This document shows positions 381 through 42,010 of a DNA stretch of 64,000 nt, one piece after another. The number at the start of each line of letters is the position of its first letter. The first letter of the stretch is position 1. The notes under the pieces were generated by a model. That model saw only the letters and a program-made list of their open reading frames with translations. It was not told the DNA's origin and did not search any database. The translations under genes and the position numbers were made by a program. Origin of the DNA: Bifidobacteriaceae bacterium (lineage in GTDB: Bacteria; Actinomycetota; Actinomycetes; Actinomycetales; WQXJ01); NCBI GenBank assembly GCA_031268215.1, contig JAIRXP010000030.1, forward strand, positions 44,463-108,462, given 5' to 3'.

Positions 381-534
381 TTGGCCCTCTTTCCTGTAAA
401 ACCGTTGAGTTGACTGCCTTCAATGCTATTGCCCCGGCGCCCACCAGGCGCGCGCCTCAGCCATCAGCCAATGAATCTCCCCAGTTTTACCACTCGCGAC
501 GGCCGGGACGGATCGCCCTGGGTCCCGGGCCGCG

Positions 535-1224: not shown

Positions 1225-1307
1225 TTTCCTTGGCCTCCCAATCGGTGTCTGCGGGTGGTAGGGGCTATGCCCTCCTGCCCTCAACGTTAGCTCATTGGGC
1301 TGGGCTG

Positions 1308-2045
1308 TCACCTGGGCGTACGGCCCGTGTTCCGCGAGCCCGCAGGGCTGACCGCTAACACCACGGCGCCGAGGGTTTGGCAGCCCGCCCGCCCCAACGC
1401 CCGTTCCGCGTCAAGCAGAGTCGCGCCGGTAGTCAAGACATCATCCACCAGCAGGCACGGCGCCGGCGGCGGGCGGCGCACGCCAGTGGTACCCTCCCTG
1501 CCCGCCGCCCGCTGCCGCAGCGACCGCCCAGCCTGCTCATGGCTGCCGGCGGCCCGGGACAGCACATCCGCCAGGCCGGCCTTCAGGCCAGCCCCGCTCA
1601 AGGCCTCGGCGACCGCCAAGGCCAATTCAGCCGTACCGCCACCAGGCCGGGAAAAACGCCGAACCAGCCGGGAAGGCACCGGAACTACAGCGATATCAAG
1701 ACTGACTGGCGCCAGCACCCGCACCGCCGCCTCAGCGGTGCGAGCAATTGCCCGCCTCATCTCAAGCTCGAGTTCTCCCCGTCCCTGACGCTTCCAAGCC
1801 ACTATCGCCCGACGAACTTCATCGGCGTACCAGGCCGAACTCCACACTGGGAAGGCTGGCCCCGAGTCGGCGGGAACTAAGCGCGGCGCGCCCGCCTCGC
1901 GCCGCGACACCGGACCAAGCAGCTCCTCGCGGCAGTTCGCGCACAGCGGGCCCGCCAACTCAAGTCCGCACCCAGCGCAGTGGGCGGGCCAGACTAGATC
2001 CGCCGCCGCCCGCAGCGCCCTGCCCGCCGCCGTCGGTTTCGCCAC
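1308..2045 (-). CDS. ComF-family phosphoribosyltransferase-domain protein
   Basis: 245 aa. N-terminal Cys pairs (CAGCG...CANC) and PRTase motif LLVDDVLTTGATL. 4-nt overlap with the untrimmed hpf ORF. Same position as the ComF-like gene of mycobacteria. Confidence 0.75.
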   Translation of the reverse strand: MAKPTAAGRALRAAADLVWPAHCAGCGLELAGPLCANCREELLGPVSRREAGAPRLVPADSGPAFPVWSSAWYADEVRRAIVAWKRQGRGELELEMRRAIARTAEAAVRVLAPVSLDIAVVPVPSRLVRRFSRPGGGTAELALAVAEALSGAGLKAGLADVLSRAAGSHEQAGRSLRQRAAGREGTTGVRRPPPAPCLLVDDVLTTGATLLDAERALGRAGCQTLGAVVLAVSPAGSRNTGRTPR

Positions 2046-6087: not shown

Positions 6088-6185
6088 CCTCCTATGGTGC
6101 CAGAGGTGGCACCCCTCGCTCACTTCGCCGGGACGGAAGACACTTGCCAGGCCGGCTAGGGCGCCCCGAACGGGCGAAACTCGGC

Positions 6186-8477
6186 TCAACCACACGGGTT
6201 TCTCCTACCTGATCGGCCAGACGGGCCGCCTCCTGTCTTCGTGACCGGCCAGAGCGAACGCGGCGTCAAGGCCGCCCACAGCCGCCGCCACCAACTCAGC
6301 CCGGTCTTGAGTATCTCCCCCACCCCTTTGACCTCTTCCCAGCAGCGGGCGGCATCTGTGCCAGATGCGGCGACGCCGCCAAAGGCGGCCGCGTCGGTCA
6401 GGCCCGCCAGGCGCACAAGCGATGCCTGGGCCCGGGCAGGACCGGCCCGGGCCAGCTCCAACCGGGTAACGCTGGCCGCCGGTAGGCGGACCAATCCCAG
6501 ATCACGCAACTGGTCAACGACCTCCTCCCAGCCGGCCATGATCTTGAGCGCCGGCGTACCCCGGCTGAACCGCCGCCGGCGGCGGCCACCCTTGGCGGCG
6601 GCCACACCGGCCGCCGCTATCATCAACGCCGTTACCAGCGCGGACACCGTAGCCGCGACGACGCTCGCCAGTCCCCAGACCGGCCGGACGCCCGGAGTCA
6701 GCGGTTCACCGGCGCCCACCGGGACCGGGGCCAGATCTTCCTCTGGTGGGAGGGACGCACGGGGCTCGGGCGGCGGCGGCTGGGCCCACTCCGGATTGGG
6801 TTTGGGATCCGGCCGTTGATCGGCTCGCTCTGGCGAATCCTGCCGGTTGGGCGTGGGAAAGAAGCCCACCCAGCCAAGACCATCCAGGTTGACCTCCGTC
6901 CAGGCCGTCATATCGGCTCCCTTGAACGTGTATTCGCCGCCATCGGCGGGGTCCGCCCGCTCGCCGTAGCCAGGAGCGAAACCCATGACTACCCTGGCCG
7001 GCAAGTCCAGCGAGCGGGCCATTACCGCCATGGCTGAAGCGTACTGTTCGGCATCGCCCACCATGAGGCCACCGGTCAGCAGCGTGGAAAGGCGTTCCGC
7101 TCCATGCCCGGCCAGCGCCCCATAACGGCCGGAACCCTGTCCCGGGCCGGTTTGGCCGTCGGAATAGTAGCCGTCCTGAAGGAACCGCTCCAGCGCCAGA
7201 GCCTTGGCGCCCGCCGTGGGAGCCCGGGCCGTCACCGACGCGGCCGTCATGGCCGCTGCCTGGACGTTGGCGCTTGAAGGCGAGACTGCCGGACCCGCTC
7301 CGGCCGCCGCGATGGCCGATTCACCGGGCCGGTATGCGGACCAGACGGTGTCCAAGGAGTATTCGATCCCGTCCGGCGGACTGGGTGGGAGCGCCATGGT
7401 GCCCGTCAGGCTATTAGTCCGGACGGATTCCCGCAGACTCCCGGCCTGGGCTCCCGCCGCGGCGAACTCAATCGCCCGCGGCGAGCCGACCGAATAGAGC
7501 CAGACCGTCTGGCTGTCATGGTCCTGAAGATGAACCGTGGCGGTCTTGCCTTGGGCGGGTCCGGCCACCATCCGCCCAAAATTCCCGGAGCCCTGGTCCT
7601 CGTCGCCTCCCGCGACGTTCCACAAGACACCATCGAAACGGTCCATCACCGCCAGTTTGACCACGCCGCCGGCTGGCAGACCCCGAACCCGCAGCAACGT
7701 CTTGGATTTGAGGCTGGCCTTGAGGTAGCGGCGGTAGCCACTGAGCGGGCTAGGGTAATCGCGCGGATCGAAGGGCGGCGTCAGCCGGTCACGGACCACC
7801 AAACGTTCCCGGGCTGGGCCGGTCCCAGCCACGACTATTCCCGCGCCGGCCCCTACCGCCACGATCACCGCCAGGGCCACCAGGCGCCGCGGCTGGAAGG
7901 CGCGCGAGCGCACCGAGACCCACGCCAACAACCCCAGGCCCATGGCCACGCCCGCGGGCACGGCCAGAACGACTTGCCGCGTACCGAGGATGATCGCCAC
8001 GACGCTCACCGCCAACGGCACCAGTGCCGCCCAGGCGGCCCGGCGGTGCGGCAAGCGGATCGCTAGCGACGCCCCCACCCCCGTCCCAGTGTAGGCAAGC
8101 ACGAACGGCGCCAGTCCAAATCCTCCTCCCGGCAGGACTGGAACCGGCACGGTCAACAACCTCCGCCACACCGTGATCAGGCCGGATGCCAGCCATTGTT
8201 CGCTGGCCAACGTTGGCAGCAGTCGCCAGGCCGCCAGCTCCGGGACGGCCAGCGCGGGTCCCACAACTAGGTAGGCGCAGACCGCCACAGCCAGCGTCGG
8301 AAGTGGAGCCAACCCACGCCGCGCGGCCAGCACCGCCACCGCTCCGCCCAGGCATAGGCCCCCCAGAACCGCCCGGATGAGGCCCGGCCATGTGAACACC
8401 GGGGCTAGCGGAGCCAACGCGACCGCGACCAGCGCGGCGATGGCTGCGGCGTGGGTCAGCCGTCCAGCGCTAGTCAT
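6186..8477 (-). CDS. Polytopic membrane protein with extracytoplasmic transglutaminase-like domain; catalytic triad apparently absent
   Basis: ORF 6186..8537; likely start ATG 8477 (MTSAGRLTHAAAIAALVAVALAPL) forms an ATGA overlap with the DUF58 stop. About 6 N-terminal TM helices. Transglutaminase-core-like stretch VGDAEQYASAMAVMARSLDLPARVVMGF...MTAWTEVNLDGLGWVGFFPTP. One more TM near the C-terminus. Confidence 0.75.
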   Translation of the reverse strand: MTSAGRLTHAAAIAALVAVALAPLAPVFTWPGLIRAVLGGLCLGGAVAVLAARRGLAPLPTLAVAVCAYLVVGPALAVPELAAWRLLPTLASEQWLASGLITVWRRLLTVPVPVLPGGGFGLAPFVLAYTGTGVGASLAIRLPHRRAAWAALVPLAVSVVAIILGTRQVVLAVPAGVAMGLGLLAWVSVRSRAFQPRRLVALAVIVAVGAGAGIVVAGTGPARERLVVRDRLTPPFDPRDYPSPLSGYRRYLKASLKSKTLLRVRGLPAGGVVKLAVMDRFDGVLWNVAGGDEDQGSGNFGRMVAGPAQGKTATVHLQDHDSQTVWLYSVGSPRAIEFAAAGAQAGSLRESVRTNSLTGTMALPPSPPDGIEYSLDTVWSAYRPGESAIAAAGAGPAVSPSSANVQAAAMTAASVTARAPTAGAKALALERFLQDGYYSDGQTGPGQGSGRYGALAGHGAERLSTLLTGGLMVGDAEQYASAMAVMARSLDLPARVVMGFAPGYGERADPADGGEYTFKGADMTAWTEVNLDGLGWVGFFPTPNRQDSPERADQRPDPKPNPEWAQPPPPEPRASLPPEEDLAPVPVGAGEPLTPGVRPVWGLASVVAATVSALVTALMIAAAGVAAAKGGRRRRRFSRGTPALKIMAGWEEVVDQLRDLGLVRLPAASVTRLELARAGPARAQASLVRLAGLTDAAAFGGVAASGTDAARCWEEVKGVGEILKTGLSWWRRLWAALTPRSLWPVTKTGGGPSGRSGRRNPCG

Positions 8478-9808
8478 GGCGCTGTCAGCTTCGCCATTGT
8501 CTGCGGCAGGTCCTCCAGGCGTCCGATCCTGGCCCATTTTGCGCGGCCGGCCCGGCCCGTATCGGCAACCCGGACGGAGCGGCTGGCGCCGCCGGCGCGG
8601 ACGGTCCGGCCACTGCGGACGCCCGCCGCTTCCCAGCTAGTGTCGCAACGCAGTGCCACAACTGAGGCATCAGGTGGCAGGTACTGGGCGATCCGCCGCA
8701 GGTCATCTTCCGCCAGGCGGCCGCCGGTGACGAGGATCGCATGGTTCGAGCTCGGTGCCTCGCGGCGGGCGCGTGCGGCCGCGCCCGCCAAGGTGCCAGA
8801 TCCGCTCGACCCGCTGGGTCCGCTGAGGCCGGCGGGGCCGCGCGACCTGGAGAGACCGGAGAGACCGGAGGGAGTGGAGGGACTGGAGGGACCGCCAAGG
8901 ACGAGGGCGGCCGCCTGATCAAGCAACCGGCCGCGGGCCACCTGGCCAGGGCCGAGCACGACCTGACCATCCATCACCGCCAAGTCGCCGGATTCACCCA
9001 ACTGAGACAAGCCAACCGAAGCGAAGACGGAAACGGCCAGTTCAAAGTCCCGCGCCCCGCCGTACTCCTCGCGCGCCGCTGAGATGATCAAGACCACCCG
9101 CACCCGCCGAATGTCTTCCGATTCGCGTACCATGATCTGACCCAACCGGGCCGAGGAACGCCAATGGACTGAACGAATGTCATCTCCGGGCTGATATTCG
9201 CGCAGGGCATGGAAGGATAATCCGGTCTGGGCCGCTTGGCCAGTTGGCCTGCCTTCGACATCCCGGATCAACCCTGGCGCACCGACTACCACCCGCGCCG
9301 TACGCGGGTAAACGGCCACCACGCTGGGGGCGCCCCAGTCCCAAGTCCGCAGCGCCAGGCCAAAAGGATCACCCCGGAATGCCTTGGGCGGCCCGATCCG
9401 CAACAGGCCCCGCGCGGTGGCCGGCACAGTCAGATCAACCAGCACTTCGCGCCCAGGGGCCAAAGCCCGCACCCGAACCGGCACCAGGCGGGCACCAATC
9501 GGCAGCATCAATCCGCGCGGCCGGACCCGGCGCCGGCCCAGGTTGACGATCCGCAGCCGCACGCCCAAGCTGCCGCCCGCCTCAACGCGCTGGCGGTCGG
9601 TTTCCAGAGCGACGGCCAGCCGGGGCCGTCCCAGGGTGCTCACCGAGCCAGCCAGAAAAGTCGCCGTCGCGCAACCGCCGGGTACGGCCAGTTCCGGCCA
9701 GCCCAACCACCAGCCAACGGCCAGCCCACTCAGCCCCAAGGCCAGCGCGGCCCAGCCCCACGGCCGGACACCACCCGCCGCCCGAGCGGAAGATTCGCCC
9801 GCCACCAT
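8474..9808 (-). CDS. DUF58-domain protein (MoxR partner)
   Basis: 444 aa. Two N-terminal TM helices. DUF58 signature region LREYQPGDDIRSVHWRSSARLGQIMVRE. ATGA overlaps with moxR (9808-9811) and the downstream gene (8474-8477). Contains a Ser/Gly/Pro low-complexity insert (GGPSSPSTPSGLSGLSRSRGPAGLSGPSGSSGSG). Confidence 0.75.
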   Translation of the reverse strand: MVAGESSARAAGGVRPWGWAALALGLSGLAVGWWLGWPELAVPGGCATATFLAGSVSTLGRPRLAVALETDRQRVEAGGSLGVRLRIVNLGRRRVRPRGLMLPIGARLVPVRVRALAPGREVLVDLTVPATARGLLRIGPPKAFRGDPFGLALRTWDWGAPSVVAVYPRTARVVVGAPGLIRDVEGRPTGQAAQTGLSFHALREYQPGDDIRSVHWRSSARLGQIMVRESEDIRRVRVVLIISAAREEYGGARDFELAVSVFASVGLSQLGESGDLAVMDGQVVLGPGQVARGRLLDQAAALVLGGPSSPSTPSGLSGLSRSRGPAGLSGPSGSSGSGTLAGAAARARREAPSSNHAILVTGGRLAEDDLRRIAQYLPPDASVVALRCDTSWEAAGVRSGRTVRAGGASRSVRVADTGRAGRAKWARIGRLEDLPQTMAKLTAP

Positions 9809-9810
9809 TG

Positions 9811-10806
9811 TCAGGCCGCCATCCGCGCCGTTTCGAGACCACCGGCCGCCGGTGCGGTGACCCGGCGCAGCACGCCAGCGATCACCTCATGAGCCACCCC
9901 CGCCTGAGCCGGGGATTCCACCAGCGCCTCCAGGCCGATTATCAAACGGTGCGCCAAGACCGGATGCGCCAGCGCCTTGACGTCATCCGGCGTGACATAG
10001 GCCCGCCCCTGGGCCATAGCGAAGACCTTGGCGCAACGCGCCAGGGCCAGCCCGCCACGGGTCGAGGCTCCAAGCTCACAACGATCATCCATCCGGGTGG
10101 CCTCTGTCACCGAGACTATGTATTCCGCCACCGCCGGAGCGATATGCGCTTGAGCCGCCATCTCGCTTAGCTGAACCACCCGTTCAACCGAAACAACCGG
10201 TTTGACCACCGCTGTCCGGTCGATCCGCGCCGATTCCCGCACCAACGAGACGGTTGTCTCATGGCTTGGATAGCCGAGTTTGGTCCGGATCAGGAAACGG
10301 TCTAGCTGCGCCTCTGGCAGTCGATAAGTACCCAGTTGCTCAATCGGATTTTGGGTCGCAATCACCACAAATGGCGCGGGCAGATCGTGGCTGACGCCAT
10401 CGGCCGTGACCTGCCGCTCCTCCATCGCCTCAAGCAGGGCGGATTGGGTCTTGGGGCTGGCGCGGTTGATCTCATCCGCCAGCAGCACAGAGCAGAAGAC
10501 CGGGCCAGGACGAAACCCGAACTGGCCCGTGTTCTGATTGTAGATACTCGCCCCAATCAGATCCGAAGGCAGCAGGTCGGGCGTGAACTGGACCCTTCCG
10601 TGGGTTCCCGCCACCGCCGCTGCCACGGCCTTGGCCAGGGATGTCTTGCCGGTACCGGGCACATCTTCCAACAGCGCGTGTCCACCCGCCAGCATGGCCG
10701 TCACGACCAAACAAATCGCACTGGGTTTACCAGCGATCACCTTCGCTACGGCGGCGTTGATCGCGGCGAATTCGGTCGCGAATTGGACCGCTTTCTGGTC
10801 ATCCAT
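9811..10806 (-). CDS. moxR: MoxR-family AAA+ ATPase
   Basis: ORF 9811..10914 trimmed to MDDQKAVQFATEF (ATG 10806, 331 aa). Walker A DVPGTGKTSLAKA, Walker B VLLADEINRASPKTQSALLEAMEE, sensor region VIATQNPIE. Confidence 0.9.
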   Translation of the reverse strand: MDDQKAVQFATEFAAINAAVAKVIAGKPSAICLVVTAMLAGGHALLEDVPGTGKTSLAKAVAAAVAGTHGRVQFTPDLLPSDLIGASIYNQNTGQFGFRPGPVFCSVLLADEINRASPKTQSALLEAMEERQVTADGVSHDLPAPFVVIATQNPIEQLGTYRLPEAQLDRFLIRTKLGYPSHETTVSLVRESARIDRTAVVKPVVSVERVVQLSEMAAQAHIAPAVAEYIVSVTEATRMDDRCELGASTRGGLALARCAKVFAMAQGRAYVTPDDVKALAHPVLAHRLIIGLEALVESPAQAGVAHEVIAGVLRRVTAPAAGGLETARMAA

Positions 10807-13800
10807 AGGTCTCCTTGAAGGTCTTATCGTCCGGCACGGCGCCGAACCCGGTTGAGCCGCCATGCCCCGCAGCCGTCTGGAGGCGGGCCACTGAAATGGT
10901 CGAATAGGCCCCAAACTGGAGGCCCGCCTCAGGTTTGGGTTCAGGTTTGGCTATCACGACTCGCGCTTCGGGTGATTCGACACAGATACCACTGGCCGGA
11001 ACGCCAGGAACCAGTCCGATGCCGTCGCCAGAGTTCAAGCAGTACCTCACCTTGGCGGTGTGGATGCCGGCCCCCAAGCCGGTAAACACGGTCTGACCGG
11101 AGGCGATTCGTTGGCCGTCGAAATACCATTCCGGGGACGCCACGAACCCAGCTGGAACCCGGTACCGCGGCCAGGTCACAGCGAGTTCGGCCGCTCCGCC
11201 CACAGTCCCGCCCGGCGTGTCGCCTTGAGCCAGACCCGAAGACGAGTCCGTCCCGGTGTCTCGCTCCCGCCATGTCCAGGCGATTACTGGAGCGACCAGT
11301 GGCTCAAGGCGACCGGGCGGTTGACGGAACGGCCCAGCCGGGTCAGATAACTTCGACCCGCCGTCCGGCTTCAGGCTTTGAGCCATTACCTCAAACTTGG
11401 CGACCTGGCCAGGGTCCAGGCGAACCGCACAGGACGTGTTGGCGCAACCATCTTGGGGCTGGCCGTTGACCAACAGCGAGTAGGCGACACCCGCCCCCGC
11501 ACCCGAGACCTCCTCCCAGGTGACAGTCACAGACCGCTCATCACGCCAAGTCACCCGGGGCCGGGCCGGCTGGCCCGGCTCTCCGTAAGGTGTGACGGAG
11601 TTGAGTCTCAAAGGCACTGACGAGCCCTTGCGGTTGACGGCAGCGACCGAACAGCTATAGGAGACGCCGCCCGCGACATCCCCCAGCGTCAGGTGGGTGG
11701 CCTGGATGGTGCCTCCCATCACCGCACCGTCACACATCACGGTGTAGTAACTGACTGAGCCGCCGTCCGGAGCGGGAGGGGTCCAGTTCAGAGAAATCTG
11801 ATTCTTGCCGGCCGCCGCTTCACCTTCCCGCGGAGAATCCGGCGCCACCTCGTAGTCCAACGTGGCCATGCCAGGCTCGGCCGATTCACCCACCGCGTTG
11901 CGGGCATAAACTTGCGCCCGGTATTGGCCGCCATAAACCAGCCCGCTCCCCCGGCAGCGCGCCGAGGCGGCGCCGGCGCCCGCTTCTTCACAGTCAGCCC
12001 CGGATAGAACCACTCGGTAAGCCTCGACCGGTTCGCCATTGGCAGCCCTACCCGTCACCGGCGTCCAACTCACCAAGGCCCATCCCCGTTCCGCCGGAAC
12101 GGCCGCCACCTGAGCCGGCGGATCCGGCCGGTCGCGCGCGATCACCGTGAACGCCCCAGCCTGAAGCCGCCCAAGACCGTCCTCTACCAGGAAGCTGACC
12201 GCCACGTTGGCGTTGTCCTTGGCCGAGTTCACGGTCACCGCCACCGACTGGCCAACCACCTGAGCGGTGGCATCGCCAGTCACCGCCAAGTCCCTCAGGC
12301 GGGCCGGACGGGACTTCGCCCACGGATCAAAGACTCCCTCCAACACCGGTACCGTTTCCGGCCGTCCCCGTTCAGCCTTAACCACACTGGGCGGATTCGG
12401 CTTGACGGCAGGTTGCTTGGTCTCGGTCACCGTCACGGTTATGGCCAGACCGGTCCGCGGCCGGCCACCGCCATAGGCGAGGGTCACCGGGATGGTCGCC
12501 CGGTCCCCTACGGCCGGCCCCGCGGAAGCCAGGATGGAAACCGCGGTTCCCTTCTGATTGACACTCAACCCTGGCAGGGTGACGGCACCAAGCTGGACGC
12601 TGAGGTCGTTTGGGGCGTCCGGACTCAGGCCATCAATCAGGGTGAAGTCCGCCAAATCAACGACATGGGGGGTCAAGGCGCCGCGTTCGACTCGCGGTGC
12701 CGGATCGGTAAAGCCGACCACTGGTTCACCGCCCGGCAAGACCATCACATCCAGCCACAGCTTCGACTTTTTCAGCCCACTATCGCTGGTGCTGGCTCCA
12801 TCCGCCACCCAGAACTCGATCCGGTCTAGCCCAGCGAAGTCCCCATCAGCCGTATAAGCGATTCCGCGTCCATCCTTGGCGGGCGCCACCTCGCCATGGC
12901 CGGCGGCCAAGTTGCCCGGATTGGCTGGCTCAAACAGGAAGGCGCCGGCGCGGCCCTTGGCCACGGCTACAAACTCATCGAGGACAGCCACCAGCTCTTG
13001 CCCGGCCACCGCCCTGACCGGTCCGGGGGCGGGCCGCAGGTAAGGTGGCCGGGAAATCGGCGGAACAGTGATAGAACCATAGGCCGTCACACCGTCCGCG
13101 TCCGGAGCCCGGTTACGCAGGCCGTAGAAGATGATCGTGGGCAATTGCGGCTGAAGCTGGACAGTCACTTCTGATTCGTTCTTCACAGCCGCATGGGCAG
13201 AAGATTCCTCAGGCAGGAACAACTCCAGATCGCTCGACGGGCCGGACGGGTTGTAGGCCCACTGCGACACATTGATGTCCACAGACGCCTTATCGATCGT
13301 CTCGTGCGGCGGCGAAACAATGTCCTTCGCTCGCGGAGGCGCCACCGCCGCCTCCGGGTCAACCGTCAGATTGACGGAAGCTGAATCAGCCCCGCCCGAG
13401 CCACCGCAGGCGTAGTACACCACCTGGTATTGACCTGGCTGATCCGGCAACGTAACTATCAGCCTGCCCCGCACCGGATCCGCGTAAGCCATCAGATCTG
13501 GGCTAGACAGCCCCAGTTCCCGGTCAGCACAGAAAACAAGGCGGTCCTGGCCGGACAGATCCACGTCATTTGCCAGCACCGGAATCTCCAGTTCCTTGCC
13601 AGGCCGGGCAGTGGCCTTGTCATCCTGGGCCACGACCCCGCCACCGGCCTGACCAGGCGCCGCGACACCGACCGTGACCTGGGCCGTCGCACGGTTCGAG
13701 GCCCAGTCCTCGACCGCATAGGTGAAGGTGTCCGTTCCCGGCAGCTGGTCCGGGCCGGCCCGGTAAGTGATGAAGTCTGGGCCAATCTCAGTGACCGTTC

Positions 13801-16624
13801 CAGACCGCGGATAGGTGTCAAGGCCCTGTTGCAATGACACGCCGTCGCCGTCAGGGTCAATCCCGGTCAGCGGCACCGGGATCTTGACTTCCTCGCCCTG
13901 CCAGACGCGGGCCACCAAATCTCGCGGTCGGGGCGGCGCCTTAACTCTGGCCTCAGCGGAGTGAACCCGGACCGCGAAGACTCCGAGGCTGGAACCACCC
14001 GAATCGTCCACGACTGGTACAGCCACTGACACCGGCTTAGGACAGGGTGTCTCGGGCGCCAAATAGCGGACTGAGCGCACCGAGGCGTAGACGGTGCCGC
14101 ACGCGGGACTCGGTCGGATAGGCGCACCGACGGCAACCATCAAAGCGTCACCATCAGGATCCGAACTCTGCTCCAGGACCGGAATGGTAACTACGCCACC
14201 GGCCCTGACCTGGAGGTCCTTGGGCAGGACCAGCGGATCTTGGTTCGGACCGGGGCCGGCCTGAACAACGCTGATGAGGCCGGTGGCGGTGACCCCGCCA
14301 ACAGAGACGGTGTAGGAAACATCCACGCTCCCGCCACCGGCTATCGCCGTGCCGGCGCTGGAGATCTCCAGGTACTGCCGCCCCACCGGCACTACCTCAA
14401 TGCCCACATCCGGCGGCACATCGAGGCCCGCCAGTACCGGCACGCCGCCCTCCGCCACATCATTGACCAACGGATCAATCAGCGCCGGTAGGCCAGGGCG
14501 GACGTAGACGGCATCCTGAACGGCCACCACCCTGGCATCACCGCCGTCTTCAATATCCATCCGGACCGGCACCTGAGCGGTCAAAGTACCGGACCGGACG
14601 GTCACCGGCACCGAATAGGTATTAGGCGCCGATGCCCTAAAGGTCAAGATTCCAGTGTCAGGATCAACCGTGGCCTCGGTCAAAGGCGCCGGCCCGGTCT
14701 CAAGGGCGAAGACCAGCGGACGAACGTGCGCGGTGCGCAAGGAATCCCGCAGGTCCACCGTTACGGCGTCCTTTACCAGACCGTGGCCTACAACGGGATC
14801 GGCGGTTGGAACCAGCGTTCCCGCTTCGCGGAAATCGACCGTCAGCGCCAACGGTGCGGCCACCGCGCCACGCGTATCCGCTACTGTCAACGAAATCTGG
14901 ACCGGGCGCGGCGACCCGCCCAGATCCCTGACCGTCACTGCGCCATCGGCCTGGAAGGACAGCCGCACGGCCTGGTCGGACGTGGTGGCGGAAACCAATC
15001 GCATCGGGTCACCATCTGGGTCAACGAAATCCGCCAAGGCCCGGTAAGTGGCGGACGCGCCCAATTCCGCGGCCATGCGCGGAGGTTCGGCCGGGCCGGA
15101 TGGAGCCCGGTTAGCACTCGCGTCCACGCTGATATGGACGTTGGCGGAATCGGTCTGGCCGTTGGCGTCTGAAAGCGTATAGGTGAAGGACGCGGCGCCC
15201 ACCCCCGGCTCCGGAGTGAACTGGATGCCGCGGCCGCCCAGAACCAACTCGGCCCGTCCTTGGGCCAAGTCGAGTAAGCCAATCCTGCTGATCGCCAGGG
15301 CACCGCAACTGGTCGCCGAATCGTTACCCAGGACCATCGCGACCACGCTCGCACCAGGCCGGACGCCGTATTCGTCATCGCGGGCCAGAGGTTTGGCGCT
15401 CTTGTCGTCGCATTCCGGCTGGCGGTCATCCGAGGCGGTGTGATCCTGATCTGGGCTCTCCTCAGGCTTCGGATCAATCTGGTCCCAGTTGAGGCGATCA
15501 CGAACACGCCCATCTTGACTCGGCATCCACACGCGACCGTCCTGAACGTCATTAAGGACCACGACCTGCCGGTTGACCCTGAAAACGATCCGCGAATCTG
15601 GGCCAACGCCCTCCAGCGCCCGGCCCACGCTCAACTCGCCACCGCAGGTCGCCAGGTAGTTATCACCGCCATCAGCGCTGGCCGCCCACGCGGCGTGAAC
15701 GCATTCGCCAACGGCCACCGGCACCGCCGCGCGACCGACGTTGCCAGTCCGCCACTCGGTGACTTCACCCCTCGGGTCCACCAGCAGCAACGCTTCCGAT
15801 GTCGCCACGGCCACTCCGTCTCCGGTGGCTATCGGGGTCTGCAACTGGAGGTCTTCAACCCCGCCGTAACTCGACAGATCCACCGACCCGTCCAGTCCTA
15901 CCAGAACCCCTTGGACCAGCACATATGCCCGTCCACCAACCGCCGTGACAGCGTTGATCTGGCCCGACGGCAGGGCTATCCGTCCCAGATCTTGGCGGGC
16001 CGGCGGGCCGGAACCGCCATCCAGCCAGGCCCTGGTGATCCGGCCGTCCTCCGCCACGGCGAAGACATTGCCGTCCGGCGCGATCACCACCCGTCCGGCG
16101 CCCAAAGTCAAGTCTGGCTTGACGGCGGCTGGGTCGAGGCTCGCGGCATCGGCGAACCGCCGCAACCAGATCTGGCCCAAATCCGCGCTGGCGAGCAAGA
16201 CCGCGTCGCCCCCAACGGCCAGCCGCGCGAAGCCCGGGGGTGGCTCCTGCGTCGGCGGATAGGTCGCCAGGTCAGACAGCTTCAGTTCCGCCAGTTCAAC
16301 AGTCCTGAAACCGGTGCCCTGGGCGATGGCCACCTTGGACCCCGCCTGGACCACATCGAAGTCCCCCTCCTCCGGAGCGATTGTGAAACCACCGGTCAGC
16401 TCTTCGATAGCAGCGTTGTAACGAGCCACTTTCCGCTGGTCAGAGGCCAGATTGGTGACCCACACCGAAGCATCGTTGAGGTCAACCGCATCAACTGGGT
16501 AGCCTGGCTGGGCCACCGCCAGACCAGCGATTAGCGCTGGTAAGGCAGCCCAGGCCAGCGCTTTCATCCACTGACGCGGCCGTTGGGGCCGTCCTGTTCG
16601 CTGGAACCGTCGCTTTCGCATCAT
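10799..16624 (-). CDS. Giant (1,941 aa) N-terminally anchored extracytoplasmic protein: propeller-like region, many cadherin/Ig-like repeats, three C-terminal FN3 domains
   Basis: N-terminal basic stretch plus TM (MKALAWAALPALIAGLAVA). Repeats with the motif A.DD......G..v...VL.ND (e.g. ARDDEYGVRPGASVVAMVLGNDS, AQDDKATARPGKELEIPVLANDVD). FN3-like modules (LVSWTPV...YRVVLSG, ISLNWTPPAPDGGSVSYYTV, VTVTWEEVSGAGAGVAYSLLV). ATGA overlap with the upstream pseudokinase gene. Confidence 0.8.
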   Translation of the reverse strand: MMRKRRFQRTGRPQRPRQWMKALAWAALPALIAGLAVAQPGYPVDAVDLNDASVWVTNLASDQRKVARYNAAIEELTGGFTIAPEEGDFDVVQAGSKVAIAQGTGFRTVELAELKLSDLATYPPTQEPPPGFARLAVGGDAVLLASADLGQIWLRRFADAASLDPAAVKPDLTLGAGRVVIAPDGNVFAVAEDGRITRAWLDGGSGPPARQDLGRIALPSGQINAVTAVGGRAYVLVQGVLVGLDGSVDLSSYGGVEDLQLQTPIATGDGVAVATSEALLLVDPRGEVTEWRTGNVGRAAVPVAVGECVHAAWAASADGGDNYLATCGGELSVGRALEGVGPDSRIVFRVNRQVVVLNDVQDGRVWMPSQDGRVRDRLNWDQIDPKPEESPDQDHTASDDRQPECDDKSAKPLARDDEYGVRPGASVVAMVLGNDSATSCGALAISRIGLLDLAQGRAELVLGGRGIQFTPEPGVGAASFTYTLSDANGQTDSANVHISVDASANRAPSGPAEPPRMAAELGASATYRALADFVDPDGDPMRLVSATTSDQAVRLSFQADGAVTVRDLGGSPRPVQISLTVADTRGAVAAPLALTVDFREAGTLVPTADPVVGHGLVKDAVTVDLRDSLRTAHVRPLVFALETGPAPLTEATVDPDTGILTFRASAPNTYSVPVTVRSGTLTAQVPVRMDIEDGGDARVVAVQDAVYVRPGLPALIDPLVNDVAEGGVPVLAGLDVPPDVGIEVVPVGRQYLEISSAGTAIAGGGSVDVSYTVSVGGVTATGLISVVQAGPGPNQDPLVLPKDLQVRAGGVVTIPVLEQSSDPDGDALMVAVGAPIRPSPACGTVYASVRSVRYLAPETPCPKPVSVAVPVVDDSGGSSLGVFAVRVHSAEARVKAPPRPRDLVARVWQGEEVKIPVPLTGIDPDGDGVSLQQGLDTYPRSGTVTEIGPDFITYRAGPDQLPGTDTFTYAVEDWASNRATAQVTVGVAAPGQAGGGVVAQDDKATARPGKELEIPVLANDVDLSGQDRLVFCADRELGLSSPDLMAYADPVRGRLIVTLPDQPGQYQVVYYACGGSGGADSASVNLTVDPEAAVAPPRAKDIVSPPHETIDKASVDINVSQWAYNPSGPSSDLELFLPEESSAHAAVKNESEVTVQLQPQLPTIIFYGLRNRAPDADGVTAYGSITVPPISRPPYLRPAPGPVRAVAGQELVAVLDEFVAVAKGRAGAFLFEPANPGNLAAGHGEVAPAKDGRGIAYTADGDFAGLDRIEFWVADGASTSDSGLKKSKLWLDVMVLPGGEPVVGFTDPAPRVERGALTPHVVDLADFTLIDGLSPDAPNDLSVQLGAVTLPGLSVNQKGTAVSILASAGPAVGDRATIPVTLAYGGGRPRTGLAITVTVTETKQPAVKPNPPSVVKAERGRPETVPVLEGVFDPWAKSRPARLRDLAVTGDATAQVVGQSVAVTVNSAKDNANVAVSFLVEDGLGRLQAGAFTVIARDRPDPPAQVAAVPAERGWALVSWTPVTGRAANGEPVEAYRVVLSGADCEEAGAGAASARCRGSGLVYGGQYRAQVYARNAVGESAEPGMATLDYEVAPDSPREGEAAAGKNQISLNWTPPAPDGGSVSYYTVMCDGAVMGGTIQATHLTLGDVAGGVSYSCSVAAVNRKGSSVPLRLNSVTPYGEPGQPARPRVTWRDERSVTVTWEEVSGAGAGVAYSLLVNGQPQDGCANTSCAVRLDPGQVAKFEVMAQSLKPDGGSKLSDPAGPFRQPPGRLEPLVAPVIAWTWRERDTGTDSSSGLAQGDTPGGTVGGAAELAVTWPRYRVPAGFVASPEWYFDGQRIASGQTVFTGLGAGIHTAKVRYCLNSGDGIGLVPGVPASGICVESPEARVVIAKPEPKPEAGLQFGAYSTISVARLQTAAGHGGSTGFGAVPDDKTFKETYG

Positions 16625-18177
16625 CCCTCACAAATCCGCAGTAGGTCTTGGCTGGTCTTGTCGTCCCGGATCAGGCGCACTTCGACACAGACCGGGCCGA
16701 CACCGAATTCGCGCCGGGGCACCGCGACGCGCACTTCCCCAGTCAGATGGGTCCGCTCCGGCGTTCCGAGGAGTGACCAGCGGTATTGGTCCCCTGGCAG
16801 GGGCGCTGGATTGGTCCAAGCGAAGTACGGATCGCCGGTCGAATCGACTGTCACCGCGCCGTCTGCGAGGACCGGCAATGGGTCGTCTGATCCGATCATC
16901 AGGCTGGAGCCTCCGCTCGTCTCGGCCTGGCCCTCGAGATCCGGTAGGCTCGCCCGCCCGGACCACCAAATCGTCACCGCCAGGCCCACCACCAGCACCG
17001 TTGCCGCCAACACAGCGAGCGTGCCAGACGCTCGAGAGGCCGTCGGCTCCTCGCTGGCAGTGGCACGGGCGTTGGTTCTCGGGCGGTTCCTTGGGCCGTC
17101 CAGGCTGGAGCTTCGCAGTGGTCGCGGGCCCGCCGACAGGCGGGTTGGCCCTGGCACGTTCCTGGCCGCCTGGCCTCCCCAGGCAGCGCCCGATGCCGTC
17201 TGGTCAGGTACCAGCCAAGTCTCCTTTACCGGCACCACGGCCTGGATGGACGGAGGCATCGCCTGCCTGGCCGGCATCGCGATCGGGACGGGATCCGTAG
17301 CCGGCAACAGGGGCGCTTTCTTGGTGTTTGATGGCGCCGGTTCGCGCCGCGTAAGCGGCTCCTGGGAAGCCACTGCGGGCAGTGGCGGCTCGGCTCCGCC
17401 CAACACAGCTGCCAGCGCCGCCGAAAACTCAGCCATGGTGGAATAGCGGTCCAACGCGTCTGGAGCCAGGGCCGCGGCCATCACGGCGGCCAGAGTCCGC
17501 GGCAGGCCCGCCCTGGTCAAGGGCTCGACCTCCGCCGCGCGGGCAGCGGGGGTTTTCTTCGCTCCGTCCACGCCGGACCCCGCAATCAGCGCATATAGGG
17601 TCGCCGCCAGCGAATAGACGTCAACAGCCGGCGCCGCCGACACCCCACCGCTGCCGGCCTCAGGCGCTGCCCATCCAAGTTGCTCGCCACTAGCTCGGTA
17701 TGGTGCGCCTATCGCTGTGGCGGCGCCAAAACCCGTCACTACCGGGCCATAGGCTGTGAATACGATGTGCTCCGGCCTAACAGCGCCGTGGATAACTCCG
17801 GCCGCGTGAACTGAACCAAGAACCTCCGCCAAAGCCAGTGCGATGCGCACCGCCGGCCCCCATGGCATTGACCGCGCTGTACACGCCGTTTCAACGCTGA
17901 CACCCTCCGCCAATTCCGTAACCAGGACGCTAAGCCCGTCGCCGACGGCCTGCTGATCGACTAAATGGGTGACCCCGGCGACATCTTTCAGTTTGGCCAG
18001 AATGGCGGCCTCGCTCCTGATCGAAGCGTCCGGGCCAAGCCTGACCAGGCGCGGTGCGCCTGTAACCGAGTCGCTCAGGCGGAACAAATGGCCGTCGCCG
18101 GTCGTTCCCGCCGCCAACGCCTCGCCGCCGGTCAATCCGGGTAGACGCGGCAAAAGCATCTGGCGCAACTCGGTCAT
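16621..18177 (-). CDS. Membrane-anchored Hanks-type Ser/Thr protein kinase-like protein, predicted pseudokinase
   Basis: 518 aa. Kinase-fold landmarks are retained (hinge LVTELAEG, GWAAPE, DVYSLAATLYALIAG). Catalytic motifs are degenerate (LVRL for VAxK, HGAVRPEH for HRDxKPxN, GFG for DFG). Pro/Ala linker, one TM (LAVLAATVLVVGLAVTIWW), ~110-aa outside domain. AGGA Shine-Dalgarno-like (SD) sequence before ATG 18177. Confidence 0.75.
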   Translation of the reverse strand: MTELRQMLLPRLPGLTGGEALAAGTTGDGHLFRLSDSVTGAPRLVRLGPDASIRSEAAILAKLKDVAGVTHLVDQQAVGDGLSVLVTELAEGVSVETACTARSMPWGPAVRIALALAEVLGSVHAAGVIHGAVRPEHIVFTAYGPVVTGFGAATAIGAPYRASGEQLGWAAPEAGSGGVSAAPAVDVYSLAATLYALIAGSGVDGAKKTPAARAAEVEPLTRAGLPRTLAAVMAAALAPDALDRYSTMAEFSAALAAVLGGAEPPLPAVASQEPLTRREPAPSNTKKAPLLPATDPVPIAMPARQAMPPSIQAVVPVKETWLVPDQTASGAAWGGQAARNVPGPTRLSAGPRPLRSSSLDGPRNRPRTNARATASEEPTASRASGTLAVLAATVLVVGLAVTIWWSGRASLPDLEGQAETSGGSSLMIGSDDPLPVLADGAVTVDSTGDPYFAWTNPAPLPGDQYRWSLLGTPERTHLTGEVRVAVPRREFGVGPVCVEVRLIRDDKTSQDLLRICEG

Positions 18178-18495
18178 TCCGTCCTTTCATCATCACACTC
18201 GCCATGAAGAGCGCTGCGAGCGCCACTTTGGGGGCGAGACTTCGTGTGCCCGCGCCCCGGGAAGATTCCAGGGTAGGTGGAGTCCGGCCCCTTCCGGGCC
18301 CGCTCAGCGGAATCTGTGGATAACTTTCTCCGGTCCAAGGTGATCCGTCTGACCGGGTCAATGACGCCTGCGGGTGAGCCAAGTTTCGCTTACTCGAGGT
18401 CCGCGTGAACTGGCTTGACGGCATCGGCGGTTGTCAACCAAGGTGGTTCCTGTCCCCAACCTGGGCAAGAACGACGGGGAGTATGTTCGAGGGCC

Positions 18496-20058
18496 TCAGT
18501 AGCGGTAATAGCCGGGCTTATAGGGCCCGTCGACAGGCAAACCCAGGTAGGCGGCCTGGGCCGGCGTCAAGACCGTCAAGTCCACGCCAAGGGCGGCAAG
18601 ATGCAGGCGGGCGACTTTCTCATCCAGGTTCTTAGGCAGACGGTAAACGCCGGGAGGGTACTGGCCGGGCGCCGCCCCCCACAGTTCAATCTGGGCCAGT
18701 ACTTGATTAGTGAACGAGCAAGACATCACGAAACTGGGATGGCCGGTAGCGTTGCCCAGGTTTAGCAGCCGACCCTCGGACAGCACCAGAACGGAATGGC
18801 CGTCAGCGAAGACCCACTCATCAACCTGGTCCTTAACCCGGCGGCGGGTCACACCTGGATGGGCGGCCAGACCCGCCATCCCAATCTCATTGTCGAAGTG
18901 GCCAATGTTCCCAACCACGGCCTTGTCCTTCATGGCGGCCATATGGTCCGCGGTGATGACATCGCGGTTGCCGGTCGCGGTGATGAAGAAGTCACCCAGC
19001 GGAGCGACCGCCTCCATCCGGGCCACCTGGAATCCATCCATGGCCGCCTGCAAAGCACAAATCGGGTCGATTTCGGTCACAATGACACGGGCCCCCTGAC
19101 CGCGCAGGGCCTGTGCGGCGCCCTTGCCGACATCTCCATAACCGGCCACTACCGCGACTTTCCCGCCAATCAGGATGTCCGTGGCGCGGTCCAGTCCGTC
19201 CGGCAAGGAATGGCGGATCCCATAGATATTGTCGAACTTGGACTTGGTAACCGAATCGTTGACATCTATAACCGCGAAACCCAGGCGGCCAGAATCAGAC
19301 AACGCGGTCAGCCGGTGTACTCCGGTAGTGGTCTCCTCGCTGACACCCTTCAGTCCGCCCGCCAGGCGTGTCCACAGCCCCGGTGCGCTGGCCGCTATCC
19401 GGGCCAGCAGTGACTGAACAACCTGGCCTTCGGCGCTGTCAGCCAAGGCCTGATAGGAGGGAGAGTCCTGACCCAAGACGTCGAATTCCGATCCGGCGGA
19501 CAAGAGCGTAGAGGCGTCAGCGCCATCGTCCACTATCAAGTCCGGGCCACCGGGCGAGCCGTCAAAGCCCCGCCAGTCCAGCGCCTGCCAGGTACACCAC
19601 CAGTAGGCGTCCAGCGACTCGCCCTTCCAAGCGAACACGGGCGTCCCTTGGAGGTCATCCGGCCGGCCGTTTGGGCCCACCACTACCGCCGCCGCCGCCT
19701 CGTCCTGAGTGGAGAAGATGTTGCAAGAAGCCCAACGGACCTGGGCTCCAAGAGCCCTGAGGGTCTCAATCAGAACCGCCGTTTGAACGGTCATATGGAG
19801 CGAACCGGTGATCTTGGCCCCAGCCAAGACCTGCCCAGGGCCAAACTCTTCGCGCAGGGCCATCAAGCCGGGCATCTGCTGTTCCGCCAGACGGATTTGG
19901 CAGCGGCCAGATTCGGCCAGGGCCAGGTCACGCACCGCGTACCGTCCAGGCTGGTAGTCGATTTGCGGGGGCACCGGCGGCGCGGGGGGTCCGGAAGGCA
20001 CCGCGCCTGACGCCGACGGCTCGGCGCCTGACGCCGCTCCACCTAGCCCAGAACTCAT
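18496..20058 (-). CDS. ahcY: Adenosylhomocysteinase
   Basis: 520 aa. NAD-binding [15 protein letters not shown]. Typical SAHH blocks ([34 protein letters not shown]-terminus). N-terminal Ala/Pro-rich extension. Confidence 0.95.
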
Positions 20059-20222
20059 GACAACTCCTCCAAGCTAACCGCCCGGTCCGCCAGCATCACC
20101 GGAACCGAATCGCGGACCGGATAGGCCAGCCGGCAAGCCCGGCACACCAGATAGCCCGGATGATCGAACAGTTTGCCCTTGCACGTGGGACAACGCAGGG
20201 CTTGACGCACCCACTCTTGCAT
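20055..20222 (-). CDS. Trm112-family small zinc-ribbon-like protein (55 aa)
   Basis: Own translation (below the track's size cut-off): [55 protein letters not shown]. CPxC...CxxC and the PVxDGIPVML-like motif typical of Trm112/DUF343. Its TGA overlaps the ahcY ATG (20055-20058). Confidence 0.6.
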
Positions 20223-20225
20223 TAG

Positions 20226-21644
20226 CTATGCCTCCTCAATCAAGCCGGCGATCCCATCGCGGACCTTCTCCATGACATCGCGGTCTTCCGCCTCGACGTT
20301 TAACCGCAGCAGCGCCTCGGTGTTGGATGAACGGACATTAGCCCACCAGCGGGGCGGCCCGTCCCAGTGATTGACAGTGAGCCCATCCAGCCAATCGAGC
20401 GTGACCGTGCCGCGGGCGGCGTCTTCGGCGTAGGCGGCCTGCACCTTTTGGATGGCGTATGCCGGATCCGCCACCCGGAAGTTGATCTCCCCGGACGCCG
20501 CGTACGGGGTATAGACAGTAGCCAGGAGGCTCAGCGGCAGATCCTGTGAGCCAAGTGCGGCCAGAACATGCATGGCGGACAAGATGCCCGAATCGGCATA
20601 GAAAAAGTCGCGGAAGTAGAAGTGGCCTGAATGCTCAGCACCAAAAACAGCATCCCGCGCCGCCATGGCAGGCTTGATGACGGCGTGGCCCACCGGAGTC
20701 CGGACCGGTTCGGCGCCGGCCGCCCGAACCAGTCGCGGCAACACCTGTGACGTTATGGCGTTGTGGATAACCACCGCCGGGCGGCCGGCCAGGTCCTCGC
20801 GCGCGACTTCCCGCAAAGCGATCATCACACCGATCACCGACGGGCTGACAATCTGGCCCGCCTCATCCACCACGAAGCAGCGGTCCGCGTCGCCGTCGAA
20901 GGCTAGGCCCAGGTCAGCGCCCACGTCCAGGACCGTCCGTTGGAGATCGGCCAGGGTGGAGGTGTCCAAAGGGTTGGCCAAGTGGTTGGGGAAAGTGCCG
21001 TCCGGTTCGAAGAACAGCGGCACCAGCTCGATTGGGAGCCGCAGCGGACCGCTCGCCGGACCCAATACCGCCTCCGTCACCACTCCACCCATGCCATTGC
21101 CTGCGTCAACCACCACCTTCAGCGGCCTGATTTGTGTCAGATCCACGGCCTGGCGCAAGAAGCGAGCGAAGTCTTCCAGCACGGCGGTTCGCGTGACGGT
21201 CCCAGCCTGAGCAGCGCGAGGCGGGTCAGGGTTGGCCTCCGCCCAAGCCACAATCTCTTTGAGGCCAGTTTCCAGCCCGACCGGTTTGGCGCCGGGACGC
21301 ATCAATTTGAGCCCGTTCTCCCCGGACGGATTGTGCGATGCCGTCAGCATGGCTCCCGGAAGCGCCTTCGCCCCAGAGGCGTAATACATGGTGTCAGTTG
21401 AGACTTGCCCGATGCCGACCACATCCAGTCCGCCACGAACGGCGCCTTCCGTCAACGCGGCCGCCATATCCGGCCCGCTGGTCCTCATGTCGTAACCCAC
21501 CAGCAGGGCCGGCGCCTCGCTAAGAGCGTGGGCTATGGCTGCGCCGATGGCCCGGGCTTCCTCCGGCCCCCATTGGTCTGGCACCGCGCCGCGCAGGTCG
21601 TTGGTCTTGAGTATGGCACTGAGGGATCGCATCCCGTCAAGCAT
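20226..21644 (-). CDS. manB: Phosphomannomutase/phosphoglucomutase (alpha-D-phosphohexomutase family)
   Basis: 472 aa. Active-site loop TASHNPSGENG, metal-binding loop FDGDADRC, sugar-binding GAEHSGH. Confidence 0.9.
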   Translation of the reverse strand: MLDGMRSLSAILKTNDLRGAVPDQWGPEEARAIGAAIAHALSEAPALLVGYDMRTSGPDMAAALTEGAVRGGLDVVGIGQVSTDTMYYASGAKALPGAMLTASHNPSGENGLKLMRPGAKPVGLETGLKEIVAWAEANPDPPRAAQAGTVTRTAVLEDFARFLRQAVDLTQIRPLKVVVDAGNGMGGVVTEAVLGPASGPLRLPIELVPLFFEPDGTFPNHLANPLDTSTLADLQRTVLDVGADLGLAFDGDADRCFVVDEAGQIVSPSVIGVMIALREVAREDLAGRPAVVIHNAITSQVLPRLVRAAGAEPVRTPVGHAVIKPAMAARDAVFGAEHSGHFYFRDFFYADSGILSAMHVLAALGSQDLPLSLLATVYTPYAASGEINFRVADPAYAIQKVQAAYAEDAARGTVTLDWLDGLTVNHWDGPPRWWANVRSSNTEALLRLNVEAEDRDVMEKVRDGIAGLIEEA

Positions 21645-42008: not shown

Positions 42009-42010
42009 TG

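Follow-up and report, generated by a model that had tools for sequence, protein, structure and literature searches.

The subject of this analysis is an operon of five genes on the minus strand of a 64,000-nt stretch of DNA (the window) from a Bifidobacteriaceae bacterium (assembly GCA_031268215.1, contig JAIRXP010000030.1, positions 44,463–108,462 of the forward strand). In the order of transcription, the genes encode a membrane pseudokinase, a giant surface protein, a MoxR-type AAA+ ATPase, a DUF58 protein, and a TgpA-like polytopic membrane protein (TGM). The five open reading frames (ORFs) lie where the original prediction had placed them (Table 1). A Pfam check of the five products supported every domain call, and the coordinates, the Pfam domains, and the reading of the junctions agree with its description of a tightly packed minus-strand unit.

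The junctions between the genes were read base by base. ATGA overlaps were found between the pseudokinase and giant genes (16621–16624) and between the DUF58 and TGM genes (8474–8477). The giant and MoxR genes share an 8-nt overlap, ATGGATGA, at 10799–10806, with a GGAG 6 nt upstream. These three junctions were as predicted. A further ATGA overlap, which had been claimed for the MoxR and DUF58 genes, is actually a 2-nt spacer: the MoxR stop codon TGA occupies positions 9813–9811 and is followed by "ca" and then by the DUF58 ATG at 9808.

Identity and distribution of the cluster

We conclude with high confidence that the window operon is a PFNA-type cluster (kinase, fibronectin type III (FN3) giant, MoxR, DUF58, TgpA-like protein) of an uncultured Bifidobacteriaceae lineage. 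In Bifidobacterium, the PFNA cluster, pkb2-fn3-aaa-atp-duf58-tgm, was described by the Danilenko laboratory (PMC8430577, PMC6803598, PMC10688814). It was reported in 71 of 86 Bifidobacterium species and later in 77 of 99 (PMC8430577, PMC10688814), and in some species prpC, a hypothetical gene, and fha are further members (PMC8430577). In B. longum GT15 the genes are co-transcribed and their expression is raised by TNF-alpha; Pkb2 of B. longum phosphorylates MoxR in vitro, and a C-terminal fragment of the 1,994-aa B. longum FN3 protein binds TNF-alpha in vitro (PMC8430577, PMC10688814). Its authors regard the cluster as unique to bifidobacteria and have proposed that it serves host immune sensing (PMC8430577, PMC10688814).

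The ORFs and Pfam domains of the five window genes match the published order pkb2, fn3, aaa-atp, duf58, tgm, all in one direction (PMC8430577). The original prediction had known of no characterised system with this composition, and had itself named an already characterised homologous operon as what would overturn it. That statement is refuted, because PFNA has the same five genes in the same order. The giants are homologous over nearly their full length: the window giant is 28% identical to a 1994-aa FN3 protein (P0300; L and P numbers are our handles for loci and proteins) over 1839 columns (E 2e-131), and the gene context of P0300 is Pkinase-FN3-DUF58. Residues 22–1687 of the window giant are 30% identical (E 4e-150) to the giant of B. 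asteroides (L026), a locus with the window's five-gene order, and named FN3 proteins from B. thermophilum, B. boum, B. pseudocatenulatum, and others are in turn linked to the B. asteroides giant. The layouts also correspond; the B. longum giant has 1,994 aa with FN3 at 1494–1671, and the window giant has 1,941 aa with FN3 from ~1496. The MoxR proteins are of the MRP type in both, and both clusters come from Bifidobacteriaceae. The source of the window is annotated only as a "Bifidobacteriaceae bacterium" metagenome-assembled genome (MAG), which has a protein 100% identical to the pseudokinase, and the nearest loci are in other such MAGs. Another FN3 protein, of 1,859 aa (P0301), is annotated from Bifidobacterium pullorum subsp. 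saeculare.

The window cluster also differs from the published one. Pkb2 is an active kinase, whereas the window kinase lacks the VAIK Lys, the HRD Asp, and the DFG Asp. The cluster lacks prpC, fha, and the WSxxS motif of the giant, and no PP2C, FHA, or RDD homolog was found anywhere in the 64-kb window. It lies between ahcY and mtrA, in a clade of uncultured MAGs and not in a named Bifidobacterium species. The window variant is thus new in three respects: a kinase that is dead throughout the clade, the absence of PP2C and FHA, and the placement between ahcY and mtrA.

Relatives of the giant were identified by a profile scan, with an alignment of eight giant sequences and one genome per species. 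At least 325 species genomes encode a relative, and there are 76 loci among the matches listed. ORFs were called in all loci and classified by phmmer against the window proteins and the proteins of an Arthrobacter locus; the scan of neighbouring genes covered 79 fetched loci. All 49 loci that extend far enough downstream of the giant gene (Cellulomonas, Microbacterium, Arthrobacter, and others) have genes for MoxR, DUF58, and TGM there. The kinase gene was found in 33 of 38 assessable loci; in the remaining five, the sequence is cut at just the point where this gene would be. PP2C and FHA genes were each present in 36 of these 38 loci, and an RDD gene in 30. All of these genes are on the strand of the giant. 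A PP2C-FHA-kinase module lies upstream in Cellulomonas, Actinotalea, and Leifsonia, and downstream, after the RDD gene, in Microbacterium and Arthrobacter. Full-length homologs of ~2,000 aa occur in Arthrobacter, Microbacterium, Cellulosimicrobium, Promicromonospora, Brachybacterium, Nocardioides, Actinokineospora, and Lentzea. A profile of the β-propeller of the giant matched 773 cluster representatives (E≤1e-30) among 1.84 billion proteins, and in these representatives the propeller is always at residues ~30–400 of ~2,000-aa proteins.

These results demonstrated that PFNA is the bifidobacterial form of an ancient, much wider actinobacterial cluster for a giant surface protein. The locus scan and the synteny showed that the five genes co-occur far beyond close relatives. 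Because the cluster occurs in Micrococcales, PFNA is not unique to bifidobacteria, and the claim of genus specificity fails. The extended cluster (Cellulomonas, Actinotalea, Microbacterium, Arthrobacter, Leifsonia, and others) resembles that of the window in its invariant, one-strand giant-MoxR-DUF58-TGM order, in a kinase with the same FN3 ectodomain, and in a TGM without the catalytic Cys. It differs by the addition of PP2C, a 514-aa FHA protein, and an RDD-FHA membrane protein, and by canonical kinase motifs. In Arthrobacter (L001), the RDD membrane protein (12517–13563) has a C-terminal FHA domain and the separate 514-aa protein (8460–10004) also ends in FHA; the cluster therefore encodes two phosphothreonine readers. 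No description of the extended cluster was found in the literature searched. Its order-spanning distribution, the family-wide loss of the TGM nucleophile, and the folds of the propeller and of the kinase FN3 ectodomain are new.

Two loci from Microbacterium and Microbacteriaceae (L041 and L046, 1–9000 in each) have an additional, divergent MoxR-DUF58-TGM-PP2C set immediately upstream of the giant. The TGM of this set has an insertion of ~17 residues before the degenerate Cys site, and the canonical set is also present downstream. Type VII secretion genes (EccC-like FtsK/SpoIIIE and EccD/YukD) adjoin the Arthrobacter L001 cluster (13717–21534, minus strand). They were considered as partners and rejected, being found at 5 of the 79 loci.

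Features of the five products

The kinase-like domain of the first product matched Pfam Pkinase at 34.6 bits (cut-off 31.7). It has RLVRL in place of VAIK, HGAVRPEH in place of HRDxKPxN, and GFG in place of DFG, and it has no Gly-rich loop, so that all five catalytic positions (the β3 Lys, HRD Asp, catalytic-loop Asn, DFG Asp, and Gly-rich loop) are substituted. The call of a pseudokinase therefore stood, with a Hanks-type fold present and the catalytic residues lost. The same degenerate pattern was seen in three sister MAGs (L005, L081, and L082), with two exceptions, both in L082, where the β3 Lys and the catalytic-loop Asn are retained (RLVKL, HGGVRPAN). Elsewhere, including B. asteroides and the gut-type locus L080, the motifs are canonical (VAVK, HRDxKPxN, DFG). 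Judged by these motifs, the catalytic death of the kinase appears to be restricted to the MAG clade of the window.

The kinase ORF is intact in at least four genomes of this clade (the window, L005, L081, and L082). For L081 and L082, this was determined by tblastn and the ORF list, which led us to reject a kinase pseudogene in these two MAGs, for which JGI annotates a C-terminal remnant of 117–133 aa. The intact frames lie at 7617–9914 (L081) and ~8100–9923 (L082), and automated annotation under-reports the gene in this clade. Members of the clade are ~45–55% identical at the protein level, a divergence at which synonymous sites are saturated. Pairwise identity was 42–46% for the kinase-like domain and 45–58% for the kinase ectodomain, compared with 44–46% for DUF58, and the linker between the two kinase-protein domains could not be aligned. 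This pattern of conservation indicates selection on two folded domains without catalysis.

As a database query, the pseudokinase retrieved almost no orthologs beyond the source MAG; orthology was instead set by synteny and the ectodomain. The ectodomain, of ~90 aa and with the motif FxWxNPxPxxGDxYxW...CxEV...C, is common to all lineages, and the dead kinase is therefore orthologous to the others beyond the generic kinase fold. The ectodomain was modeled by AlphaFold2 (AF2) with a predicted local distance difference test score (pLDDT) of 88.8, and its Foldseek matches are FN3 domains.

The giant gave Pfam matches to Big_9 (five), Cadherin_5/4, and fn3 (two), the fn3 and FN3-like (Ig_RIMBP2) matches lying at ~1500–1669. 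The top Foldseek matches of its propeller are BamB, NirF, and methylamine dehydrogenase. NCBI and JGI annotate the giant as a 1922-aa protein starting at M20. We kept the 1941-aa reading, because the start in the ATGA overlap and the basic n-region are conserved, together with the transmembrane (TM) helix, in sister MAG L081. The length of the giant is strikingly constant across orders, at ~1,900–2,100 aa. Pairwise identity is 20–24% in the C-terminal tip and 29–38% otherwise. The window giant has no LPxTG, and it has no WSxxS anywhere, the equivalent site being GESAEPG. WSxxS is present in homologs from outside Bifidobacterium, for example in Actinokineospora (P0198) and also in P0099 and P0105.

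MoxR matched AAA_3 at 205.5 bits and AAA_lid_2 at 69.8 bits. Reading of the translation showed intact Walker A and B motifs, sensor 1, and Arg finger (PGTGKT, LLADEINRA, ATQNP). Its identity is 67–73% to the proteins of sister MAGs and 54% to that of B. asteroides. With an AAA_3 core, a lid, intact motifs, and a DUF58 gene 2 nt downstream, it is a member of the MRP subfamily. The DUF58 protein has an N-terminal hydrophobic hairpin flanked by basic residues, followed by the DUF58 (vWA-like) domain. From the positive-inside rule, we infer that this domain, like MoxR, is probably cytoplasmic. The family signature FHxLRxYxPGDDxRxIHW is conserved in all members, and the DxSxS motif of the metal ion-dependent adhesion site (MIDAS) is found in no DUF58 member aligned, the window protein included.

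TGM matched TgpA_N at 39.6 bits (cut-off 30) and Transglut_core at 52.5 bits. It has five N-terminal TM helices, an extracytoplasmic domain, a TM helix at residues 603–621, and a basic cytoplasmic tail of ~140 aa; this topology agrees with that of P. aeruginosa TgpA, whose domain is periplasmic (PMC3507681). Alignment with that protein (6G49) showed that the catalytic triad is replaced, C by A, H by T, and D by F (GFCAHYA/GDAEQYA, HAWVEY/TAWTEV, and VDPT/FFPT, with TgpA first). The predicted loss of the triad in the window protein was thus upheld. It is not special to the window, however, because the catalytic Cys is absent from all 55 aligned TGM proteins, which have GD[D/G/A/S/Q/E]E[Q/H][Y/F] where TgpA has GFCAHY. 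The His and Asp are kept in most Microbacterium and Arthrobacter proteins; much of Cellulomonas has lost them, as have Leifsonia and the Bifidobacteriaceae. The label "transglutaminase / cysteine protease" used for PFNA is therefore doubtful for the whole TGM family. In the window, then, MoxR is the only product to keep its catalytic motifs, and the kinase-like and transglutaminase-like proteins are predicted to be non-catalytic, as had been proposed.

Table 1. Features of the PFNA-type cluster in the window
Feature	Position (nt)	Residues	Strand	Basis or remark
Non-coding gap between ahcY and pseudokinase gene, presumed promoter region	18178..18495		-	318 nt; sequence read
Membrane pseudokinase, 518 aa, ortholog of PFNA Pkb2	16621..18177		-	Pfam Pkinase, with synteny and ectodomain
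Kinase-like domain, cytoplasmic	17392-18108	~24-262	-	Pkinase match at residues 51-202
Pseudokinase TM helix	16969-17025	385-403	-	TM prediction; preceded by unconserved linker
Pseudokinase extracytoplasmic FN3-fold domain	16624-16905	~425-518	-	AF2 and Foldseek
Giant, 1941 aa, PFNA "FN3" protein	10799..16624		-	Pfam, homology
Giant basic n-region and signal-anchor		1-38 (hydrophobic helix 20-38)	-	Sole hydrophobic segment
Giant β-propeller	15470-16510	~39-385	-	AF2 (pLDDT 85.8) and Foldseek
Giant Big_9/cadherin-like immunoglobulin (Ig) array		~413-1495	-	Pfam
Giant FN3 domains		~1496-1790	-	Pfam
Giant variable C-terminal tip		1791-1941	-	Least conserved part
MoxR-type AAA+ ATPase, 331 aa	9811..10806		-	Pfam AAA_3 and AAA_lid_2
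DUF58 protein, 444 aa	8474..9808		-	Pfam DUF58
TgpA-like polytopic membrane protein (TGM), 763 aa	6186..8477		-	Pfam TgpA_N and Transglut_core
TGM transglutaminase-fold core	6864-7247	411-538	-	Pfam, alignment to 6G49
Spacer between TGM stop and mtrA start	6088..6185		-	98 nt; no terminator-like hairpin

Flanking genes and other features of the window

The flanks of the operon are as originally described, with ahcY upstream and mtrAB-lpqB downstream. The ATG of mtrA is at 6087, and mtrA is followed by mtrB, lpqB, a ComF-like gene, and hpf; there is no tmk in the ahcY-mtrA interval of the window. A promoter consensus scan of the operon region gave no sigma-70-like match above chance. In B. longum, a transcription start site lies ~40 nt upstream of pkb2 (PMC8430577). 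In a terminator consensus scan, sites were no more frequent than expected by chance, and none was above chance between the operon genes.

Several other ORFs of the window, all on the minus strand, were noted. A second large predicted surface protein of 1,652 aa, with Listeria-Bacteroides repeats and a Big_9/cadherin-like domain, is encoded at 26781–31739 and is positionally unrelated to the operon. Four consecutive ORFs at 40788–46511 (406, 618, 446, and 451 aa) had no Pfam match at E≤1e-5 and lie directly upstream of an ABC-transporter ATPase gene (46499–47287). ORFs of 731 aa (33105–35300) and 300 aa (23010–23912) also had no Pfam match.

Proposed mechanism and alternative explanations

Taken as a whole, PFNA-type identity combined with a membrane complex for assembly or remodelling is the explanation that we favour, and we consider it somewhat probable. 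The narrower proposal, that MoxR and DUF58 have a dedicated role in assembling, anchoring, or remodelling the giant, is tentative, and we stop short of calling it probable. Because the core is invariant, encoded on one strand, and tightly packed, a stoichiometric complex is suggested, and the topology of the products fits the envelope complex around a giant extracytoplasmic protein that had been envisaged originally. The role in assembly, anchoring, or remodelling is favoured because of its analogy with the export of RipA through MoxR1 and with the MoxR/VWA maturases.

In the mechanism that we propose, the products would form one stoichiometric membrane complex. The giant would be anchored N-terminally, with its propeller at the outer face of the membrane beside the ectodomain of TGM and the kinase's FN3 ectodomain, and ~15 Ig/FN3 domains would carry the variable tip through and beyond the wall. 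At the inner face, a MoxR hexamer would work with the membrane-tethered DUF58 protein as its adaptor. MoxR may spend ATP in chaperoning the export and assembly of the complex, or in remodelling it, by way of the cytoplasmic tails. Phosphorylation, through the kinase, PP2C, and FHA proteins, would be an optional gate on the MoxR step in most lineages. The MAG clade of the window would have lost this gate; its kinase would persist as a scaffold or as an ectodomain partner, with the MoxR core running free of a phosphorylation switch.

Several points weigh against this mechanism. A cytoplasmic AAA+ protein cannot directly touch extracytoplasmic domains, and the route of coupling is conjecture. With no MIDAS in DUF58, the usual peptide-binding mode of vWA domains may not apply. 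B. asteroides has an apparently active kinase, by its motifs, and yet has no PP2C or FHA in the cluster, so that the loss of PP2C/FHA and the death of the kinase are not strictly linked. Finally, the published finding that a C-terminal fragment of the B. longum giant binds TNF-alpha in vitro suggests that, in gut species at least, the role is directed at the host.

Three groups of known systems offer comparisons. In P. aeruginosa, PA2875 and PA2874 encode a MoxR-like protein and a DUF58 protein, respectively. They are part of a co-transcribed three-gene unit that ends in polytopic TgpA (PA2873), whose periplasmic transglutaminase-fold domain can be aligned with that of the window TGM (PMC3507681; 6G49). 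TgpA differs in that it keeps Cys-His-Asp, is an active transglutaminase in vitro, and is essential, and it has no giant and no kinase partner. The M. tuberculosis moxR1 operon (MoxR1, DUF58, vWA) likewise has an MRP-type MoxR beside a DUF58 gene in an actinobacterium; MoxR1 is needed for the export of RipA, a precedent for MoxR acting before export of an envelope protein (PMC4810496). A review itself notes the resemblance of the moxR1 operon to PFNA (PMC12067865). The third partner there is a vWA membrane protein and not a TgpA-like one, no kinase is linked, and the client, RipA, is a small Tat-exported NlpC/P60 hydrolase and not a 2,000-aa Ig-repeat protein. The MoxR/VWA pairs (NorQ/NorD, RavA/ViaA, CbbQ/CbbO) and the MoxR-vWA ternary conflict systems share a MoxR hexamer with a vWA-like adaptor encoded next to it (PMC9976466, PMC7159879), and NorQ/NorD illustrates shared MoxR/VWA principles (PMC9976466). 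The conflict systems have, in addition, a third component in the cytoplasm (VMAP, iSTAND, FtsH, or a β-propeller) that bears effector domains. In those systems, the adaptors usually have a MIDAS, and the clients are soluble or respiratory complexes or cytoplasmic effectors; in the window, in contrast, DUF58 is membrane-tethered and lacks the MIDAS, and the clients are likely to be in the envelope.

Four other explanations were weighed against the assembly and remodelling complex. The published PFNA model describes a device for communication with the host. On sensing an immune signal of the host, the kinase would phosphorylate MoxR, which would fold the FN3 protein, and the FN3 domains would bind host cytokines such as TNF-alpha through "cytokine receptor motifs". 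The operon is the same, and the model draws on the co-transcription, MoxR phosphorylation, and TNF-alpha binding and induction reported for B. longum (PMC8430577, PMC10688814). Positive selection on PFNA genes has also been reported (PMC6803598), and conservation within the giant is lowest at its C-terminal tip. For the window cluster, however, we regard this model as improbable. Its kinase is not expected to be able to signal by phosphorylation, and WSxxS is absent from its giant and present in homologs from outside Bifidobacterium, so the motif is no sign of host cytokine binding. Moreover, the whole cluster is present in Arthrobacter, Microbacterium, Cellulomonas, and Leifsonia, genera known as free-living or plant-associated, and in others, which contradicts its being found only in bifidobacteria. 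In a second model, the cluster would be a sensor of surface contact or wall stress, with the giant as an extracellular antenna or ruler that signals its state, by way of the TgpA-like protein and the ectodomain of the kinase, to MoxR/DUF58 and FHA readers in the cytoplasm; signalling, and not assembly, would be primary. Such a sensor is consistent with the linkage, in most lineages, of the core to a kinase, a PP2C, and two FHA proteins, with the conserved kinase ectodomain, and with the constant length of the giant. We nevertheless find it unlikely, since evolution can do without the signalling enzymes (the window kinase is dead, and PP2C and FHA are absent from the window and from B. asteroides), whereas the giant-MoxR-DUF58-TGM core is invariant.

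The original prediction had pictured a MoxR-driven machine for envelope assembly or signalling that was coupled to MtrAB-LpqB and filled the slot between ahcY and mtrA. The cluster does lie there, the spacer before mtrA has no terminator-like hairpin, and placement is similar in the sister MAGs L005, L006, L081, and L082. The distance from the TGM stop to mtrA is 98 nt in the window, 19 nt in L082 (21406–21426), and 320 nt in L081, and read-through from the operon into mtrAB-lpqB seems possible. The adjacency is not conserved, however. Only L006 among the 79 loci scanned has mtrA beside the cluster, which with L081 and L082 makes three loci, all from the MAG clade of the window; neither mtrA nor ahcY adjoins the cluster in B. 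asteroides or at ~70 Micrococcales loci. The position of PFNA also varies between bifidobacterial groups (PMC8430577). Linkage by descent in one clade is no evidence for functional coupling, and the implied tie to MtrAB-LpqB was not sustained; we think this model, too, is unlikely. Least probable by far is a decaying relic, or an anti-phage or conflict system of the MoxR-vWA type. In favour of these readings, only one of the three enzyme-like proteins keeps its catalytic residues, MoxR has a weak match to bpMoxR (35 bits, vs 205 for AAA_3), and the kinase fold matches the PD-T4-6 and MADS kinase models. Decay is excluded by the five intact ORFs, whose conservation extends over at least four divergent MAGs, and MoxR retains its motifs as well. 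Defence is excluded by PADLOC and by topology: the PADLOC matches reflect the generic kinase fold, no other component fits any defence model, DUF58 has no MIDAS, and the propeller lies behind a signal-anchor in an extracytoplasmic giant and is not a cytoplasmic effector.

The assembly and remodelling reading can be extended to the family as a whole, in a form that we offer as speculation and consider rather unlikely to hold in full. The PFNA "host cytokine sensor" would then be one lineage's version of an order-spanning actinobacterial envelope machine, in which a MoxR motor, a membrane DUF58 adaptor, and a Cys-less TgpA-like pseudoenzyme assemble, anchor, or mechanically remodel a wall-spanning propeller-Ig-FN3 fibre of ~2,000 aa, gated by the FN3-ectodomain kinase, PP2C, and FHA. 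The termite-type Bifidobacteriaceae clade would be this machine working with its kinase as a pure scaffold.

These results correct the literature in two respects: PFNA is not unique to bifidobacteria, and its "transglutaminase" has no catalytic Cys in any member examined. The wide distribution and the Cys-less TGM weaken the host-cytokine interpretation that now motivates therapeutic work. In the clade-wide pseudokinase, a natural experiment has set the kinase's role as a scaffold apart from its role as a catalyst. Few bacterial gene pairs without an agreed mechanism are as widespread as the MoxR-DUF58 modules. They now gain an obvious candidate client, the giant encoded immediately upstream in all 49 assessable loci, and the question of their function becomes experimentally approachable in cultivable Arthrobacter, Microbacterium, Cellulomonas, and Bifidobacterium.

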